Assembly: GCA_030039795.1 (NCBI GenBank)
Contig: JASHUU010000051.1
Coordinates: 24,028-88,027, forward strand
Direction of reading: 5' to 3'
Source: Nitrososphaerales archaeon
GTDB taxonomy: Archaea > Thermoproteota > Nitrososphaeria > Nitrososphaerales > Gagatemarchaeaceae
Length of the DNA stretch: 64,000 bases
The notes beneath the pieces are model-generated. The model was not told the DNA's origin. It saw nothing but the letters and a program-made list of their open reading frames with translations, and ran no database searches. Shown in pieces: positions 5,964 through 21,713 of the stretch. Position 1 is the first letter of the stretch. Each line of letters starts with the position of its first letter. The translations under genes and the position numbers were made by a program.

Positions 5964-8450
5964 TCAGCCTACGGCGTTCGTCATCTCGAGGGACATCAGG
6001 CGGTTGAACTCCACCGCGTAGGTCATCGGGAGCTCCTTCGCGAACGGCTCGAGGAACCCGTTGACGACCATGCTCAGGGCGTCGCCCTCGCTCATCCCCC
6101 TAGACATCAGATAGAAGAGCTGCTCCTCCCCAACCTTCCCGACGCTGGCCTCGTGGGTGACCGTGGCGTCGTCTTCCTGGATCTCCATGTACGGGTAGGT
6201 CGCGGTCGTGCTCGCCTGGTCAAGCAGGAGCGCGTCACATCTGACGGAAGACTTCACGTTCTTGGCGCCCTTCGCTATGTGGAGCAGGCCCCGGTACGCC
6301 GTGTGCCCCCCTCCCTTGGAGACCGACCTCGAGATGATCTTGGAGGTGGTGTCCTTCGCCAGGTGGACGGCCTTGCCTCCCGTGTCCTGCACCTGTCCCG
6401 GTCCGGCGTAGGCCACCGAGATTATGTCCGCCCTGGACCTCGGACCGAGGAGGTAGATCGACGGGTACTTCCTGGTAAGCTTCGAGCCTCCGTTGAAGTC
6501 GACCCAAGACACCGTGGCGTCTTCGTAGGCGTGGGCGCGCTTTGTAACCAGATTGAACACGTCCCTGGACCAGTTCTGGAGCGTAGTGTACTTGACGAGC
6601 GAACCCTTCCTGGCGACGATTTCTACGATTGCCGAGTGAAGCGACTGAGAGGAATAGACAGGCGCACTGCAGTTGTGGACGGCGAATCCCTTGACGAGAT
6701 ACGTCTCGTCGCCCTCCACTCCTATGTTGTACACCCGCCCTTCGAACTTGGACGAAAGGACCTTCTTTATGGGGACGAAGAACCTGTTCCCCTTCCTCCT
6801 TACGGCGCTCCACTTCTTGCCCTCCGTGTACTCCACGATGTACTTGTCCTTCCGGGCTATCTTTCTCCCGGCTATCGTGTCTTCCGACCCCTTCCTCAGA
6901 TTGACGTTCGCGAACACGCCCGCCCTTCCAAGGAGCTCCTGGAGCTGGAAGGCAAGCAGTCGGCTCGCGGTCGACGCCCGAATCATGACTGAGTTGTCCG
7001 CCTTCTTCACGTACCGGTTTCCGTCCCCCCTCAGGTAGTACCTCAGAAAGGTCTCTTGCCTCGTCGGAGGGAGGTGCATCAGCCGTTCGTCGAGCAGCTT
7101 TGTGGCCGCTCCTGTCCCGCAGGACTTCCTGCAAAGGTCGATCAGCTTCTTGGAGTAGGAGGTCACTACCCAGTACTTGCCCCTCGACCTGTACATGCTT
7201 GCCTTCTCCCCCGTCGAGTGAATCAGGCTGAGAAGCTCCTTCGCAAGCGACTTCTCCGACTCGGACTTTCCGAAGCTGAACTCGAGCACGTCCCGTCGGA
7301 GGCTGACGCTGTAGGAGACTGACCCCTCGGCGAGATAGACGCCTAGAATCTTCAGGAGAGCCTCAGAGAGAGAGGAGTCGTCTGCTTCCTCGTCAGGAAC
7401 GACATAGACCAGGAAGTCTCCCACCTTCAGGTCTCCGGCTTCGACGAATTCGGGCTCGGCGCTCATCAGCTTGGCAGTGGACGCTTCGGGGAGCCATCCG
7501 TTCCGGCCCGCCCTCACGACGACGGACTCCCTCCTCACCGCGAGCACCGGATGCTCGGGGGTGAGTCTGAATGAGCTGGCGCTCGACTGCGGGACGATGG
7601 TCAGCATCTGGCCGTTGTGTGGATGGACGTAGGTCTCGTTTACGAGCCTCTTCCTTCCTTCGTGAGTCACCACCCTCTCCCCGCGAGAGACCTCGTGAAT
7701 CTGCTCCATGGCGGAGCCGAGGCTCACCAGCTCGTCGGCCGGCAGGCAACCTTCAATGTATGTGACTTCACTGTAGGGCTCTCCCACGATCAGGGTCCTC
7801 TCGAACTGTCCCATGTTACGCTCGTTTATCCTGAAGTACGCCTGCAGAGGCATAGTCACCTTCACTCCCTCCGGGACGTAGACGAAGCTCCCTGCGCTCC
7901 AGACGGCTGTCTGCAGGGCGGCGATGAAGTTGTCCTGGTAGGGCACGACCGTGCCGAAGTACTTCTTCATGATGTCAGGGTACTCCTTGAGCGCGGTCAC
8001 GGTGTCTGAAAAGACGACGCCCTGCTTCTGCAGCTCGCCTTGGATGCTGTGGTACACCGCCTCGCTTTCGTAGATCGCACCCACGCCAGCCAGGAACTTC
8101 TTCTCTGCGTCCGTGATGCCCAGCTTGTCGTAGGTCCGCTTGATGTACTCAGGGAGCTGCTCCCAAGAGTCGGCCGCCTTCCCCGTCGGGTTCGCGTAAT
8201 AGTAGAAGCTCTGATAGTCGATGTCGGCCAGGTCCGGAGCCCAAGCGGGAGGCTTCATTTCGAGGAAGTGCCGCAGGGCCTTCATCCTCAGCTGCTCCAT
8301 CCAGGCCGGCTCGTCGTGCAGCCTTACTATCTCCTGGACCACGCGCTCCGAGAGGCCCTTTATCCCCTTGACCGCGTACTGGTCTACGGGGTCGCTGAAC
8401 CCGTACTTTTCCTTGTAGTCCTCGGTCACCGTGTCTGTTTTCGAGGCCAT
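5964..8450 (-). CDS. sufB: Fe-S cluster assembly protein SufB, interrupted in frame by an intein
   Basis: The ORF is 828 aa, versus about 470 aa for a typical SufB. The exteins read ...EVTYIEG|CSAPVYSSQSLH... once aa 235-593 are removed. The C-terminal motif THEASVGKVGEEQLFYLMSRGMSE is present. Confidence 0.95.
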   Translation of the reverse strand: MASKTDTVTEDYKEKYGFSDPVDQYAVKGIKGLSERVVQEIVRLHDEPAWMEQLRMKALRHFLEMKPPAWAPDLADIDYQSFYYYANPTGKAADSWEQLPEYIKRTYDKLGITDAEKKFLAGVGAIYESEAVYHSIQGELQKQGVVFSDTVTALKEYPDIMKKYFGTVVPYQDNFIAALQTAVWSAGSFVYVPEGVKVTMPLQAYFRINERNMGQFERTLIVGEPYSEVTYIEGCLPADELVSLGSAMEQIHEVSRGERVVTHEGRKRLVNETYVHPHNGQMLTIVPQSSASSFRLTPEHPVLAVRRESVVVRAGRNGWLPEASTAKLMSAEPEFVEAGDLKVGDFLVYVVPDEEADDSSLSEALLKILGVYLAEGSVSYSVSLRRDVLEFSFGKSESEKSLAKELLSLIHSTGEKASMYRSRGKYWVVTSYSKKLIDLCRKSCGTGAATKLLDERLMHLPPTRQETFLRYYLRGDGNRYVKKADNSVMIRASTASRLLAFQLQELLGRAGVFANVNLRKGSEDTIAGRKIARKDKYIVEYTEGKKWSAVRRKGNRFFVPIKKVLSSKFEGRVYNIGVEGDETYLVKGFAVHNCSAPVYSSQSLHSAIVEIVARKGSLVKYTTLQNWSRDVFNLVTKRAHAYEDATVSWVDFNGGSKLTRKYPSIYLLGPRSRADIISVAYAGPGQVQDTGGKAVHLAKDTTSKIISRSVSKGGGHTAYRGLLHIAKGAKNVKSSVRCDALLLDQASTTATYPYMEIQEDDATVTHEASVGKVGEEQLFYLMSRGMSEGDALSMVVNGFLEPFAKELPMTYAVEFNRLMSLEMTNAVG
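6672..7748 (-). mobile_element. SufB intein (359 aa) with a LAGLIDADG homing-endonuclease domain
   Basis: It starts with Cys (CLPADELVSLGS) and has block B LTPEHPVLAV. There are two LAGLIDADG-like motifs, LLKILGVYLAEGSV and FLRYYLRGDGN. It ends ...GFAVHN, followed by the +1 Cys of the extein sequence CSAP. Confidence 0.9.
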
Positions 8451-18177: not shown

Positions 18178-18306
18178 CGGGCCTGGTGGGATTCGAATTC
18201 GTGGGCGCTGTTGCGCCTCCCACGACATGCTGGTGACTCCCACTGAGCTAGCTAAGAGCCAGCCGCTTCAGTCGCTTTCGCTCTAACCTGGCTGAGCCAC
18301 AGGCCC
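18178..18306 (-). tRNA. tRNA-Lys(CUU) gene with three introns; the mature form is 75 nt
   Basis: Removing 18264-18278 (15 nt), 18235-18252 (18 nt) and 18198-18218 (21 nt) gives GGGCCUG UG GCUC AGCCAGGUUA GAGC G GCUGG CUCUUAA CCAGC AUGUC GUGGG UUCGAAU CCCAC CAGGCCC G. All four stems are fully paired. U8, G18G19, U33, A37 and the T-loop UUCGAAU are present, and CCA is not encoded. Confidence 0.85.
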
Positions 18307-18330: not shown

Positions 18331-18342
18331 GAATTAAAAACA
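18331..18342 (-). promoter_or_regulatory. TATA-like box (TTTTTAATTC on the minus strand) about 25-35 nt upstream of the tRNA 5' end
   Basis: This A/T-rich element sits in otherwise G+C-rich DNA at the spacing expected for an archaeal promoter. Confidence 0.35.
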
Positions 18343-18444
18343 TTCGTGAACTCAAGCGCCGGCGAACACGCCGAGCCATGGGAGAGAGGAGGACTCGCAT
18401 CTACTCTCGACTTCAAATAAGACCGCCTTGTCCGGCTTCCCACA

Positions 18445-19482
18445 ATGGGAAGCCTGGTCTTCGTGGGCCTGGGGCTCGGCCCCAAGGGGTGCTCCGTCCA
18501 GGGGGTCGAGGAGATGCGCCGGGCCGAAGTCAGGTATCTGGAGTACTACACGTCTCCCCACGAGCCAGAGATGCTGACACAGTTGAGGAAGCTAGGCCTC
18601 GAGATGACCGTCGTGGACAGGGGCTTCGTCGAAGATGGGAGTCGCATCCTGTCAGAGGCCGCGGAGAAGAAGGTCGCGCTCGCCGCATTGGGGGACCCTA
18701 TGATCGCCACGACGCACAACGAGCTCAGGACGCGCGCGATCAAGCTGGGCATAGAGACTCGCGTCATACATGGTGCGACCATCGCCTCGGCCGCCGCAAG
18801 CGCGTCGGGGCTTCACTCCTACAGGTTCTCGAGGACCGTGACTGTGACGAGGGAGTCTGTGAATAGGCTCTCCCAGGCATACCACATCCTCCACGAGAAC
18901 CTGCTCGAAGAGGCCCATACGCTGCTCCTCCTAGAGTACGACGTCCAGTCTGGCGAGGGCGTCTCCCCTGCAGACGCCATGCAAGGGCTGCTCCTCGCCG
19001 AGGCCAACTTCAAGAGAGGCGTGGTCGGCGAGTCCACGTTCGTCCTCGTGCTGTCGAGGCTAGGGAGGGCTGACGCGCGATTGGCGGCGGGAAGCGTCTC
19101 GTCTCTGGCGGGCAGGACCTTCGGCGAGCCGCCTCACTGCATCGTCGTCCCAGGGGCGCTGCACTTCACGGAGAAGGAGGCCGTCGCCGCGATCTTCTCG
19201 CTGGAGGAGGCCAGCGTCCAAGGGAACTCCGGGCCGGTCCTCAGGACCGCCCAGACGCTCGTGCCCAGATACGTCGCCAAGACGAAGCGGGCGCTCGAGC
19301 AGGTGCAGGGGAAGCTCGGGCATGAGTACGACGGCGTCGTTGAGAACGCTGAACTCTACATGAGGGACGCGGAGAGGTTCCTGGCGGAGGGAGAAGACGA
19401 GATGGCCATGCTGAGCGTTGGATACGCCGAGGGCCTCCTCGACTCGCTCTCCTTCTCCGGCGTGGCGAAGCTGGAGTGGTGA
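18445..19482 (+). CDS. dphB: Diphthine synthase with an extra C-terminal helical domain of about 85 aa
   Basis: LVFVGLGLG...YLEYYTS...ALGDPMIATTH...IHGATI...PPHCIVVPG is the tetrapyrrole-methylase-fold diphthine synthase. The ORF is 345 aa, versus about 260 aa for the typical enzyme. Confidence 0.85.
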   Translation: MGSLVFVGLGLGPKGCSVQGVEEMRRAEVRYLEYYTSPHEPEMLTQLRKLGLEMTVVDRGFVEDGSRILSEAAEKKVALAALGDPMIATTHNELRTRAIKLGIETRVIHGATIASAAASASGLHSYRFSRTVTVTRESVNRLSQAYHILHENLLEEAHTLLLLEYDVQSGEGVSPADAMQGLLLAEANFKRGVVGESTFVLVLSRLGRADARLAAGSVSSLAGRTFGEPPHCIVVPGALHFTEKEAVAAIFSLEEASVQGNSGPVLRTAQTLVPRYVAKTKRALEQVQGKLGHEYDGVVENAELYMRDAERFLAEGEDEMAMLSVGYAEGLLDSLSFSGVAKLEW

Positions 19483-20081
19483 CAGTGGACGACAGGCACG
19501 TCCTAGGGGCGGTCTTCGCGGTGGCGCTGAAAGGAAGTGCGACCCAGGCGGCGGTCGCCAGGCGTCTCGGAGTAGACGACGAGCACATCAGGAAGGCCTT
19601 CAAGAGGCTCAAGGACGAGGGACGGCTCGTCGCCTCGGGACGTATCCTCTCCCTGACGGAGAAAGGCAGGAGGTCGATAAAGGTGGTCTTCATCGGCGGC
19701 GGCTTCGAGGTGATTCATCCCGGTCACCTGCACACCATAGAGAGCGCGAAGAAGCTGGGCGACGTGCTCGTCGTAGCCGTTGCGACGGACAGCACCATAA
19801 GGAGGAGGAAGAAGAGAGAGCCCGTCTCCACGCAGGAGGTAAGGGCGAGGCTCCTGTCGTCCTTAAGGCAGGTGGACGCGGCCTTGGTGGGGTCCGAGGG
19901 AGACATCTACGAGACGCTGGAGAAGGTGCGCCCCGACGTGGTGGCGCTCGGCTATGACCAGTATCACATGGAAGGGGAAGTGGCAAAGGAGGCTGCCAAG
20001 AGAGGGATGAGAGTCAAGGTCGTCAGGCTCGACTCGCCAGAGCCCGACCTCAAGACAAGCGCGCTCCTCGCGGAGTACTAA
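19476..20081 (+). CDS. ribL: Winged-HTH domain fused to a cytidylyltransferase-like FAD synthase (RibL-type)
   Basis: The N-terminal roughly 60 aa (TQAAVARRLGVDDEHIRKAFKRLKDEGRL) look like a wHTH. The C-terminal part carries FIGGGFEVIHPGHLHTIESAKKLGD. The GTG start overlaps the dphB stop by 7 nt. Confidence 0.7.
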   Translation: MVTVDDRHVLGAVFAVALKGSATQAAVARRLGVDDEHIRKAFKRLKDEGRLVASGRILSLTEKGRRSIKVVFIGGGFEVIHPGHLHTIESAKKLGDVLVVAVATDSTIRRRKKREPVSTQEVRARLLSSLRQVDAALVGSEGDIYETLEKVRPDVVALGYDQYHMEGEVAKEAAKRGMRVKVVRLDSPEPDLKTSALLAEY

Positions 20082-20707
20082 GCCCTGCCCTTGGCCAGCT
20101 TCCGCTCGAGGCGCGCCATCGACCTGTTCACCTCCTCCCGCCTCGTCTCCTCAGCCAGGAGACCGCGCGTGTCCTCTACCAGCATCCTCGCCACGTCAAT
20201 CTTCCGCCTGGCGCCGTTGGCCACGTGGTCGAAGACCGCCAGGGGAGAGCACGCCGCGTAGATGCCCTCCATGGTCTCGAAGTACCGCCTCGCTTCGGCG
20301 AGCCTCCGGCGCATGATTGAGTCGAGCACGAGCCTCTTGAGCTCGCCTACGGTGTCCAGCAGCCCCAGCAGGTACGCCTCCGGCGAAGCGTTCAGGCTAC
20401 GCATGGACGGCACCGGCTTCCCTCGCGCGAGGGACATCACGGCCGATGCCTCGACGAGCTCCGCTTCGGGAGACACGAGATATCGAGAGACAGGTCCGTC
20501 CCCTGTCTTCTTCAGCTTCTGCATGAGCGACCGCGCTGTCGCCAGCTCCTTCTCTGCCTCCTTCATCCGCCTTGTGTGGACCGCGATTATCGCCTTCGAC
20601 GAAGCAGATATCACGTCCCTGCTGTCCTTGAGGACCCTCTCCCTCCTCTCCAACTGGCCTGAGAGATAGCCCTCTACATCCTGGACCGACCGCTTGATTT
20701 CCTCCAT
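20078..20707 (-). CDS. Translin-family protein
   Basis: MEEIKRSVQDVEGYL...EAYLLGLLDTVGELKRLVLD...NGARRKIDVARMLVEDTR resembles the archaeal/eukaryotic translin signature (GL.D..GEL.R). The start was chosen at M53 of the track ORF to avoid overlap with the divergent gene. Confidence 0.55.
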   Translation of the reverse strand: MEEIKRSVQDVEGYLSGQLERRERVLKDSRDVISASSKAIIAVHTRRMKEAEKELATARSLMQKLKKTGDGPVSRYLVSPEAELVEASAVMSLARGKPVPSMRSLNASPEAYLLGLLDTVGELKRLVLDSIMRRRLAEARRYFETMEGIYAACSPLAVFDHVANGARRKIDVARMLVEDTRGLLAEETRREEVNRSMARLERKLAKGRA

Positions 20708-20735
20708 CGCTCCTGTTGCAGTCCCCGGGGTAGCC

Positions 20736-21713
20736 ATGATAAGTCTACTCGTGCCGGGGTCGGAGGCCGGATGGCGAGTCTCGTTGGATAGGAAGTTCGG
20801 GGTCGCGCTGTCGCAGACTGCCATAGCGGCGGCTCTCTGGGGGACGTCATTCCCAGTGATCACTGTCGGACTAGAAGGCGGCCTGAGCCCCGTTTCGTTC
20901 CTGTTCTACAGGCTCGCCCTCGCCGTCCCGGTGATGCTGGGCGCCGCGGCGCTCGCGGGAAAGAAGGTCCTGCCGCTCATGCGGAGCAGGGCGGTCTGGA
21001 TAATCGGGTTCACGAACGCCGTGGCCTTCCTCTGCCAGTTCGTTGGGCAGGAGTACACAAGCGCGTCTGTCGCGGCGCTCCTAGTGAACCTGTCGGTGGT
21101 GGTGGCCGCGGTAGGAGGAGTGCTCTTCCTCGGCGAGAGGGTTGGCGCGGTGAAGGCCGCGGGAGTGGCTGCCGCCTTGGCGGGGACCGTGCTGGTCACC
21201 ACGAACGGGAGCCTGCAGGGCATCGGCGGCGGGCGTCTCCTCGGCGACCTGCTCTACTTCATAGCCGCGGCGTCGTGGGGAGGCTATATCGTCTATGCAA
21301 AGAAGAAGACTGACGAACTCCAGTGGGACCCCTTCTCTCTGGCCGTGTGCGTTGTCGTCGTCAGCGCGCTGCTGGTCCTCCCCGTGGCCCTCGTCCTAGG
21401 CAGCGCGCCGCCTGTGGGTCTCACGCCTCTGCTGGCGGTGGCCTACACGGCCGTCTTCAACACCGCGATCCCGTACGTCCTCTACCAGCAGGGTTTGAAG
21501 CGCCTCTCGGCGGTGGTGTCGGCCGTGGTGCTCACGCTGGAGATAGTCGTAGCGCTAGCTGTCTCCGCGGTCTTCCTCGGAGAGTCGTTGACCGCCTTTG
21601 CCTGGTCGGGCGCGCTCCTGATCCTCGCTTCAATAGTCATGGTCTCGGCGACCGGGACAGGACGGGTCTCGGGGCTGCGGCGCGGCCCTCACCAAGAACG
21701 TCGCCCCGCTTAG
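20736..21713 (+). CDS. EamA/DMT-family transporter
   Basis: The sequence has about ten hydrophobic helices and a two-repeat EamA-like architecture. The start codon is uncertain. Confidence 0.75.
   Translation: MISLLVPGSEAGWRVSLDRKFGVALSQTAIAAALWGTSFPVITVGLEGGLSPVSFLFYRLALAVPVMLGAAALAGKKVLPLMRSRAVWIIGFTNAVAFLCQFVGQEYTSASVAALLVNLSVVVAAVGGVLFLGERVGAVKAAGVAAALAGTVLVTTNGSLQGIGGGRLLGDLLYFIAAASWGGYIVYAKKKTDELQWDPFSLAVCVVVVSALLVLPVALVLGSAPPVGLTPLLAVAYTAVFNTAIPYVLYQQGLKRLSAVVSAVVLTLEIVVALAVSAVFLGESLTAFAWSGALLILASIVMVSATGTGRVSGLRRGPHQERRPA

Follow-up and report, generated by a model that had tools for sequence, protein, structure and literature searches.

Can a 129-nucleotide (nt) segment in which standard finders see no tRNA encode a functional tRNA-Lys(CUU), and what kind of introns would then interrupt it? 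This question is raised by the minus strand at positions 18178-18306 of a 64,000-nt stretch of contig JASHUU010000051.1 (hereafter the window, that is, the whole stretch of DNA that was analysed). An earlier note, made from the letters of the window, had proposed a tRNA-Lys(CUU) gene with three introns of the bulge-helix-bulge (BHB) type, located in the D-arm, at 37/38 and at 53/54. The proposal is upheld by the exact exon junctions, by compensatory substitutions, by conserved BHB helices and by the Rfam score of an orthologue (L142) that carries intron 1 only. We conclude that the locus is very probably a functional tRNA-Lys(CUU) gene from a Nitrososphaerota archaeon with high G+C, in which short BHB introns of the archaeal type occupy three sites, 22/23, 37/38 and 53/54.

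Anatomy of the precursor and of its predicted product

The gene consists of four exons and three introns (15, 18 and 21 nt). Excision of 18264-18278, 18235-18252 and 18198-18218, as laid out in the earlier note, reproduces its 75-mer exactly, and ARAGORN calls this molecule tRNA-Lys(ctt) with a full cloverleaf (7/4/5/5), in which 21 of 21 stem pairs are Watson-Crick, the number that had been claimed. The CCA end is not encoded in the gene. Because AGCG is repeated, removal of intron 1 leaves an identical product for every cut between 22/23 and 26/27; therefore, the mature tRNA alone cannot separate the registers of this intron. The features are listed below in the order of the precursor (all on the minus strand), with intron 1 in the register that fits best.

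18178-18306, minus strand: whole pre-tRNA-Lys(CUU) coding region (ARAGORN on the spliced form; motif scan)
18283-18306, minus strand: exon 1, positions 1-22, with the 5' acceptor strand, U8, G9, the 5' D-stem strand, the D-loop and G22
18268-18282, minus strand: intron 1, 15 nt, AGCGAAAGCGACUGA, site 22/23 (BHB enumeration, orthologue registers, shuffle control)
18253-18267, minus strand: exon 2, positions 23-37, with the 3' D-stem strand, G26, the 5' anticodon-stem strand and loop positions C32-A37, anticodon CUU
18235-18252, minus strand: intron 2, 18 nt, GCUAGCUCAGUGGGAGUC, canonical site 37/38 (BHB enumeration, 90 of 90 orthologues)
18219-18234, minus strand: exon 3, positions 38-53, with A38, the 3' anticodon-stem strand, the variable loop AUGUC and the 5' T-stem strand GUGGG
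18198-18218, minus strand: intron 3, 21 nt, AGGCGCAACAGCGCCCACGAA, site 53/54 (BHB enumeration, 69 of 69 orthologues, covariation)
18178-18197, minus strand: exon 4, positions 54-73, with the T-loop UUCGAAU, the 3' T-stem strand, the 3' acceptor strand and discriminator G73
Predicted junctions of the spliced RNA: GGUUAG-AGCGGCUGG, CUCUUA-ACCAGC and GUGGG-UUCGAAUCC

The earlier note had also suggested running ARAGORN on both forms of the locus: no tRNA was called in the unspliced form, and the 75-mer spliced in silico was recognised as tRNA-Lys(ctt). Likewise, Rfam gave no tRNA match to the unspliced locus at the gathering score, nor at E<=10; its FMN and GNAS matches there are chance hits (16 and 13 bits versus gathering scores of 66 and 45). 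As an independent approach we used a crude tRNA scan, which required a T-loop, a 7-base-pair (bp) acceptor stem, U8, G10 and the GG of the D-loop, on both strands of the 64-kb window. The tRNA-Lys(CUU) locus was the sole match; the same scan found no further interrupted tRNA in the window, nor in 124 fetched related loci, where it gave two long false hits. One natural allele is directly visible to Rfam: L142, which has the mature sequence of the window and only intron 1, scores 56.4 bits against the tRNA family (gathering score 29), and the alignment is correct, with the insert placed in the D-loop.

Two other kinds of interrupted gene were considered and rejected. A split or permuted tRNA gene does not fit, as every exon lies in its proper order in one contiguous stretch of 129 nt. 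Group I or group II self-splicing introns span hundreds of nucleotides with a catalytic core, compared to 15, 18 and 21 nt here, and Rfam finds no intron family at the locus.

Splice motifs in the precursor

We enumerated all arrangements of a 3-nt bulge, a 4-bp helix and a 3-nt bulge in the precursor. An intron was regarded as BHB-type when both of its splice sites lie in 3-nt bulges with the 4-bp helix between them, the cut falls after the second bulge nucleotide, and there is at least one flanking helix (hBHBh', hBH or HBh'). Motifs of this type were found at all three introns, intron 1 having the weakest one. At 22/23, intron 1 forms an HBh' motif, in which G18 G19 U20 U20a of the exon pair with GACU of the intron, the bulges being AG|A and GA|A; GC-GAAA-GC forms the inner hairpin. 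At intron 2 the outer helix is the 5-bp anticodon stem, and C32 U33 C34 U35 pair with GGAG (one G-U pair), with bulges UA|G and UC|A. Intron 3 forms another HBh' motif: C48 G49 U50 G51 pair with CACG between the bulges GG|A and AA|U, the inner helix GGCGC/GCGCC has 5 bp, and the outer helix is absent. The relaxed motif given for intron 3 in the earlier note had the same pairing, bulges and inner hairpin. The central helix of intron 3 uses the 5' strand of the T stem and is therefore incompatible with the T stem at the same time. The three motifs span nucleotides 19-40, 44-78 and 83-110 of the precursor and do not overlap, thus they can exist side by side, and the three introns could be cut independently.

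Orthologues and natural intron-less alleles

Related loci were collected in two scans, and all counts of orthologues given here refer to the matches listed in them. The scan of species-representative genomes used an overly loose pattern, which returned mostly bacterial tRNA-Ile and other tRNAs, along with at least four orthologues. The scan of metagenome contigs used a gapped pattern, which was able to match intron-less copies as well, and gave at least 120 matches; together with the window, there are at least 97 distinct pre-tRNA sequences. These loci share ~70% nucleotide identity with the window over kilobases, and in at least 100 loci the tRNA is adjoined by a divergent gene with TP_methylase and DUF357 domains (59-72% amino-acid identity in the loci inspected). 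Given this synteny and nucleotide identity, we regard the related loci as truly orthologous. Four intron configurations were found among the 97 distinct sequences:

Introns 1, 2 and 3: 50 of 97, the commonest form (for example, L055, titled Nitrososphaerales archaeon)
Introns 1 and 2: 21 of 97 (for example, L099, uncultured archaeon)
Introns 2 and 3: 19 of 97 (for example, L086, titled Nitrososphaerota archaeon, and L053, archaeon FK2.bin78)
Intron 1 only: 7 of 97

No intron-free orthologue was found among these 97 sequences. Intron 1 is precisely absent in 19 orthologues, intron 2 in seven and intron 3 in 28, and in each case the missing intron leaves the exact exon joint that was predicted: GGTTAG|AGCG, CTCTTA|ACCAGC and GTGGG|TTCGAATCC, respectively. 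Such alleles resemble a splicing experiment done by nature at every one of the three sites, although they bear on splicing in vivo only indirectly. Each of the four configurations occurs on several mature-sequence backgrounds. This distribution implies that introns 1, 2 and 3 were each gained or lost independently more than once, or that recombination took place, rather than a single event per intron. In L165, intron 1 is absent and intron 3 is identical to that of the window.

Conservation and covariation

The 97 orthologues yield 13 distinct spliced products, and all 13 are called tRNA-Lys(ctt). In the 10 spliced products that are independent of the intron 1 register, the cloverleaf is 100% paired, compared to 29-48% in slid controls, and four pairs of the acceptor and T stems have changed on both sides (6:67, 7:66, 49:65 and 50:64). 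Among the acceptor positions that the search pattern left open, only 6 and 7 vary, and they are compensated at 67 and 66. It should be noted that the constancy of the D-arm in exon 1 is no evidence, because the search pattern fixed that part.

The splice motifs are conserved as well. The 4-bp helix at 37/38 is present in 90 of the 90 orthologues with intron 2, and the one at 53/54 in 69 of the 69 with intron 3. For intron 3, pairing holds in 98.2% of cells (21-56% in slid controls), and three pairs of the inner helix show compensatory double changes. A full 4-bp helix is found in 83% of the 78 orthologues with intron 1. The intron-side strand of the 22/23 helix occurs as GACU, GAUC, GGCU, GACC, GGCC and AAUC, all of which pair with the invariant G18 G19 U20 U20a. 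Shuffled introns served as a control for the whole arrangement: a 4-bp helix with at least two flanking pairs was found in 77%, 100% and 100% of introns 1, 2 and 3, versus 2.4%, 5.2% and 1.5% of the shuffles.

These data bear on the possibility that the locus is a decayed tRNA pseudogene with three insertions, which remains unprocessed while a separate, intact tRNA-Lys(CUU) does the work. In its favour, standard finders miss the unspliced gene, and the host sequence viewed for a second tRNA-Lys(CUU) copy was the 64-kb window. Conversely, the exons are nearly invariant and covarying in the 97 orthologues, even though the proteins encoded next to them share no more than 59-72% identity in the loci that were inspected; the inserts retain the BHB geometry and covary; the promoter box (see below) is conserved; and a pattern able to match an intron-less copy found none among the 97 distinct sequences listed. 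We consider a pseudogene scarcely credible.

Register of the D-arm intron

A relaxed D-arm motif had been suggested for intron 1 in the earlier note, with cuts at 24/25 (UUAG/CUGA, bulges AG|C). The relaxed motif stands, but the register is best set to 22/23 (18268-18282) rather than to 24/25 or 26/27, with no change in the spliced product. Cutting at 24/25 is not without merit, since this register also gives a 4-bp helix and correct 3-nt bulges in the window, leads to the identical product, and is the best fit in 6 of the 78 orthologues with intron 1. However, no helix flanks it in the window, where the 22/23 register gains the GC-GAAA-GC hairpin. Among the 78 orthologues, 55 fit best at 22/23 (47 of these with all four central-helix pairs) and 18 at 21/22 (a subfamily with a 17-nt intron). 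The intron of L055, worked by hand, cannot form the helix at 24/25. Thus, we regard 24/25 as an unlikely site for the window, and 22/23 as the preferred one.

A separate observation concerns the 17-nt subfamily. In L140, L148, L154, L222 and L230 (and L143), intron 1 ends in ...ACCTGAAAGCG, and no register gives both a normal mature sequence and a clean motif of 4-bp helix and 3-nt bulges; a close variant, which ends in ...ACCTGCGAGCG, fits perfectly at 21/22. The ...ACCTGAAAGCG alleles possibly have a 4-nt bulge, produce a mature tRNA with A22, or are decaying.

Host lineage, proposed processing and points of weight

The window is archaeal (it encodes a thermosome and a SufB with an intein) and has ~63% G+C. 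A 4.7-kb contig of GCA_030050735.1, which also encodes the thermosome protein, matches the window at 99.7% identity, and the loci of its relatives are largely from soil and peat samples. Archaea of the phylum Thaumarchaeota, of which Nitrososphaerota is the current name, are described, together with Crenarchaeota and Nanoarchaeota, as having the alpha2beta2 form of the splicing endonuclease EndA and as rich in multi-intron tRNAs (PMC4090602). Among EndA enzymes, only those of the (alpha-beta)2 and epsilon2 types that have a specific loop cut relaxed HBh' and hBH motifs (PMC5829648).

We propose the following processing scheme. A TATA/BRE (B recognition element) promoter at -39 to -26 would drive transcription, with the start a few nucleotides before G1. 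In the precursor, 4 nt of each intron would pair with 4 nt of the upstream exon, so that both splice sites lie in 3-nt bulges and can be cut after the second bulge nucleotide. Intron 2 would have the anticodon stem as its support (hBH-like), and introns 1 and 3 would rely solely on the inner hairpins that they form themselves (HBh'). Cleavage would be the work of the EndA type documented for the phylum, a broad-specificity (alpha-beta)2 enzyme that carries the Crenarchaea-specific loop. An RNA ligase would then join the exons, the ends would be trimmed and CCA would be added, giving the 75-nt tRNA. The gene is a mechanistically ordinary member of the archaeal BHB-intron system and brings no new mechanism to light.

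Several points weigh against this reading and should be stated together. In the window, the central helix of intron 1 contains two G-U pairs, its inner helix has 2 bp, and there is no outer helix; in ~17% of the orthologues with intron 1, among them the six that end in ...ACCTGAAAGCG, no register with the same product gives a clean 4-bp helix. The motif of intron 2, which the earlier note took for a canonical BHB, is not a full hBHBh', its inner helix being a single C-G pair. When the 129-mer is folded as a single sequence, its minimum-free-energy structure (-57.4 kcal/mol) lacks the BHB motifs, and a structure with all three motifs has -39.6 kcal/mol; we did not count this fold as evidence against the motifs because the comparative data are much stronger. 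The counts cover the matches listed in the two scans, and the search pattern fixed the D-loop and the anticodon stem, thus the configuration frequencies describe a biased sample. Splicing in vivo is something we infer from sequence, not from RNA. A phmmer search with the EndA of M. jannaschii (the query was verified against PDB 1A79) found no EndA homologue in the window or in the fetched related loci, therefore the EndA type of the host rests on the literature on the phylum. Finally, the evidence that the host belongs to Nitrososphaerota (Thaumarchaeota) and not to Thermoproteales is good but not independent, since it comes from the submitters' titles of two syntenic metagenome-assembled genomes (L055 and L086).

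The weakness of the intron 1 motif and the fraction of orthologues in which it is not clean also speak for a reading in which only introns 2 and 3 are spliced, and the 15-nt D-arm insert is kept as an enlarged D-loop or is removed without EndA; the Rfam tRNA model tolerates the insert as a D-loop insertion. On the other hand, an insert of such size that sequesters G18 G19 should disrupt the interaction between the D-loop and the T-loop. The insert is precisely absent in 19 orthologues, the six intron-side variants all keep the pairing with the exon, and the shuffle control (77% versus 2.4%) shows a large excess of the motif at this intron. Furthermore, 22/23, as well as 53/54, is a listed non-canonical intron site, 22/23 being documented for EndA (PMC4090602). 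Retention of the D-arm insert is thus very improbable, and excision of all three introns is the reading that we prefer.

Putative promoter and other genes of the window

The upstream alignment points to the following element:

18332-18345, minus strand: putative archaeal promoter, with a TATA-like box TTTTTAATT at -34 to -26 and a purine-rich, BRE-like GAATG at -39 to -35 (counted from the mature 5' end)

Among 97 distinct sequences from upstream of the gene, A/T accounts for 100% of the bases at -31 to -29, and A for ~80% at -38 and -37. At -33 to -26 the consensus reads TTTTAAT or TAAATAT, at a fixed distance, in a genome of ~63% G+C. Both the form and the spacing of the box are those of an archaeal BRE/TATA promoter that would leave a short leader (a few nucleotides), which suggests that the element would act as the promoter of the gene.

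The following protein genes of the window were noted:

18445-19482, plus strand: divergent from the adjacent tRNA; a domain of the tetrapyrrole-methylase family (TP_methylase, possibly diphthine-synthase-like) fused to DUF357
20078-20863, minus strand: a 261-amino-acid protein with a Translin-family domain (Pfam, E=6e-11)
5964-8450, minus strand: an 828-amino-acid SufB/SufD-family protein split by an intein with a LAGLIDADG homing-endonuclease domain

The pairing of tRNA-Lys(CUU) with the TP_methylase/DUF357 gene is conserved across the clade; an intergenic region of ~140 nt lies between the two genes. The synteny of the Translin-family gene is kept in at least 57 related loci. The SufB intein mentioned in the earlier note agrees with the Pfam matches of the 5964-8450 protein (SUFBD_core, SufBD_N, LAGLIDADG_3 and a weak Intein_splicing).

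Consequences for annotation

Orthologues that carry only intron 1 are detected by ARAGORN but receive wrong isotypes, namely Val(gac), Gly(tcc), Arg(acg), Glu(ttc) (twice) and Ser(gga), because a wrong stretch is taken as the anticodon arm or as an intron. The mis-typed loci are as follows:

L142, 1002-1092
L130, 7448-7540
L131, 484-574
L241, 589-680
L159, 2619-2709
L190, 371-462

This mis-typing is a likely source of mis-annotation in the genomes of the clade. In genomes annotated without an archaeal intron-aware tool, tRNA-Lys(CUU) would seem to be missing, or spurious tRNAs would be reported; a missed tRNA-Lys(CUU) also distorts completeness estimates of metagenome-assembled genomes.

Comparison with known systems

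Archaeal tRNA genes are known to hold up to three introns, and tRNAscan-SE 2.0 includes a BHB model specific to Thaumarchaeota, a phylum known for multiple non-canonical tRNA introns (PMC8450103). In the 2021 survey of 217 genomes with this program, 16 of the 16 three-intron genes were found in Thermoproteales, and 11 Thaumarchaeota genomes contained 39 two-intron genes and no three-intron gene, with 107 non-canonical introns in 498 genes (PMC8450103, Table S7). For multi-intron tRNAs with non-canonical intron positions, the earlier note had named mainly Thermoproteales and a few other lineages. The host of the window is not a member of Thermoproteales; non-canonical and multiple tRNA introns, together with an (alpha-beta)2 EndA, are documented for its phylum, Thaumarchaeota.

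A close parallel is provided by the multi-intron genes of Thermoproteales (Pyrobaculum, Thermofilum and others). As far as they are described in PMC4090602 and PMC8450103, which cite Sugahara et al. 2007/2008, these genes likewise have up to three short BHB-type introns, of which one occupies 37/38 while the rest lie at non-canonical positions of the D-arm and the T-arm. They also have relaxed HBh' and hBH motifs that need a broad-specificity EndA, and are missed by standard finders. The difference is in the host: the window comes from a Nitrososphaerota archaeon of 63% G+C with relatives largely from soil and peat, not from a hyperthermophilic crenarchaeon. The non-canonical and double-intron tRNA genes of Thaumarchaeota (Cenarchaeum, Nitrosopumilales and Nitrososphaerales) share with the window the phylum, the kind of intron and the (alpha-beta)2 EndA (PMC4090602, PMC5829648), whereas the gene studied here has three introns, the commonest form among the 97 orthologues listed.

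The pre-tRNA-Glu(UUC) of Methanopyrus kandleri also combines a D-arm HBh' intron with an intron at 37/38, and the D-arm processing is supported there by RNA-seq. However, it has two introns, and its euryarchaeal (alpha-beta)2 EndA is without the specific loop and cuts relaxed motifs poorly (PMC5829648). In the split and permuted tRNA genes of Nanoarchaeum, Caldivirga and Staphylothermus, the same logic of BHB and EndA joins the pieces; a split tRNA-Lys(CUU) at 30/31 is among the cases cited in PMC4090602. In contrast, the four exons described here follow one another in collinear order on the same strand, in one contiguous gene downstream of a single putative promoter.

Other interrupted archaeal tRNAs were seen in the loose genome scan. 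Two Bathyarchaeota metagenome-assembled genomes have a tRNA-Ile(GAU) (L009, 641-780, plus strand; L115, 1076-1215, plus strand) with an insert of ~19 nt directly after GGTTAG in the D-arm (the 21/22-22/23 site) and an intron at 37/38. Inserts in the D-arm or in the variable region are also present in tRNA genes of L020 (Aenigmatarchaeota), L104 (Hadarchaeota) and L112 (Thermococci).

Among the papers that we searched, none reports a three-intron tRNA in Thaumarchaeota or Nitrososphaerota. It may be, although we would put this forward only tentatively and with rather more doubt than confidence, that the gene is the first documented three-intron tRNA gene outside Thermoproteales and no isolated case, and that a single syntenic locus in a widespread Nitrososphaerota clade, known largely from soil and peat, segregates all four configurations, with the D-arm intron at 21/22, 22/23 or 24/25, depending on the sublineage. 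If true, the locus would be a natural series for the gain, loss and sliding of BHB introns. Its many alleles, which differ by the precise presence or absence of each intron, are useful for the study of intron gain and loss. The gene extends the range of three-intron tRNAs from the hyperthermophilic Thermoproteales to Nitrososphaerota with relatives largely from soil and peat, in which the three-intron form is common; this fits the idea that multi-intron tRNAs track a broad-specificity EndA, not habitat.

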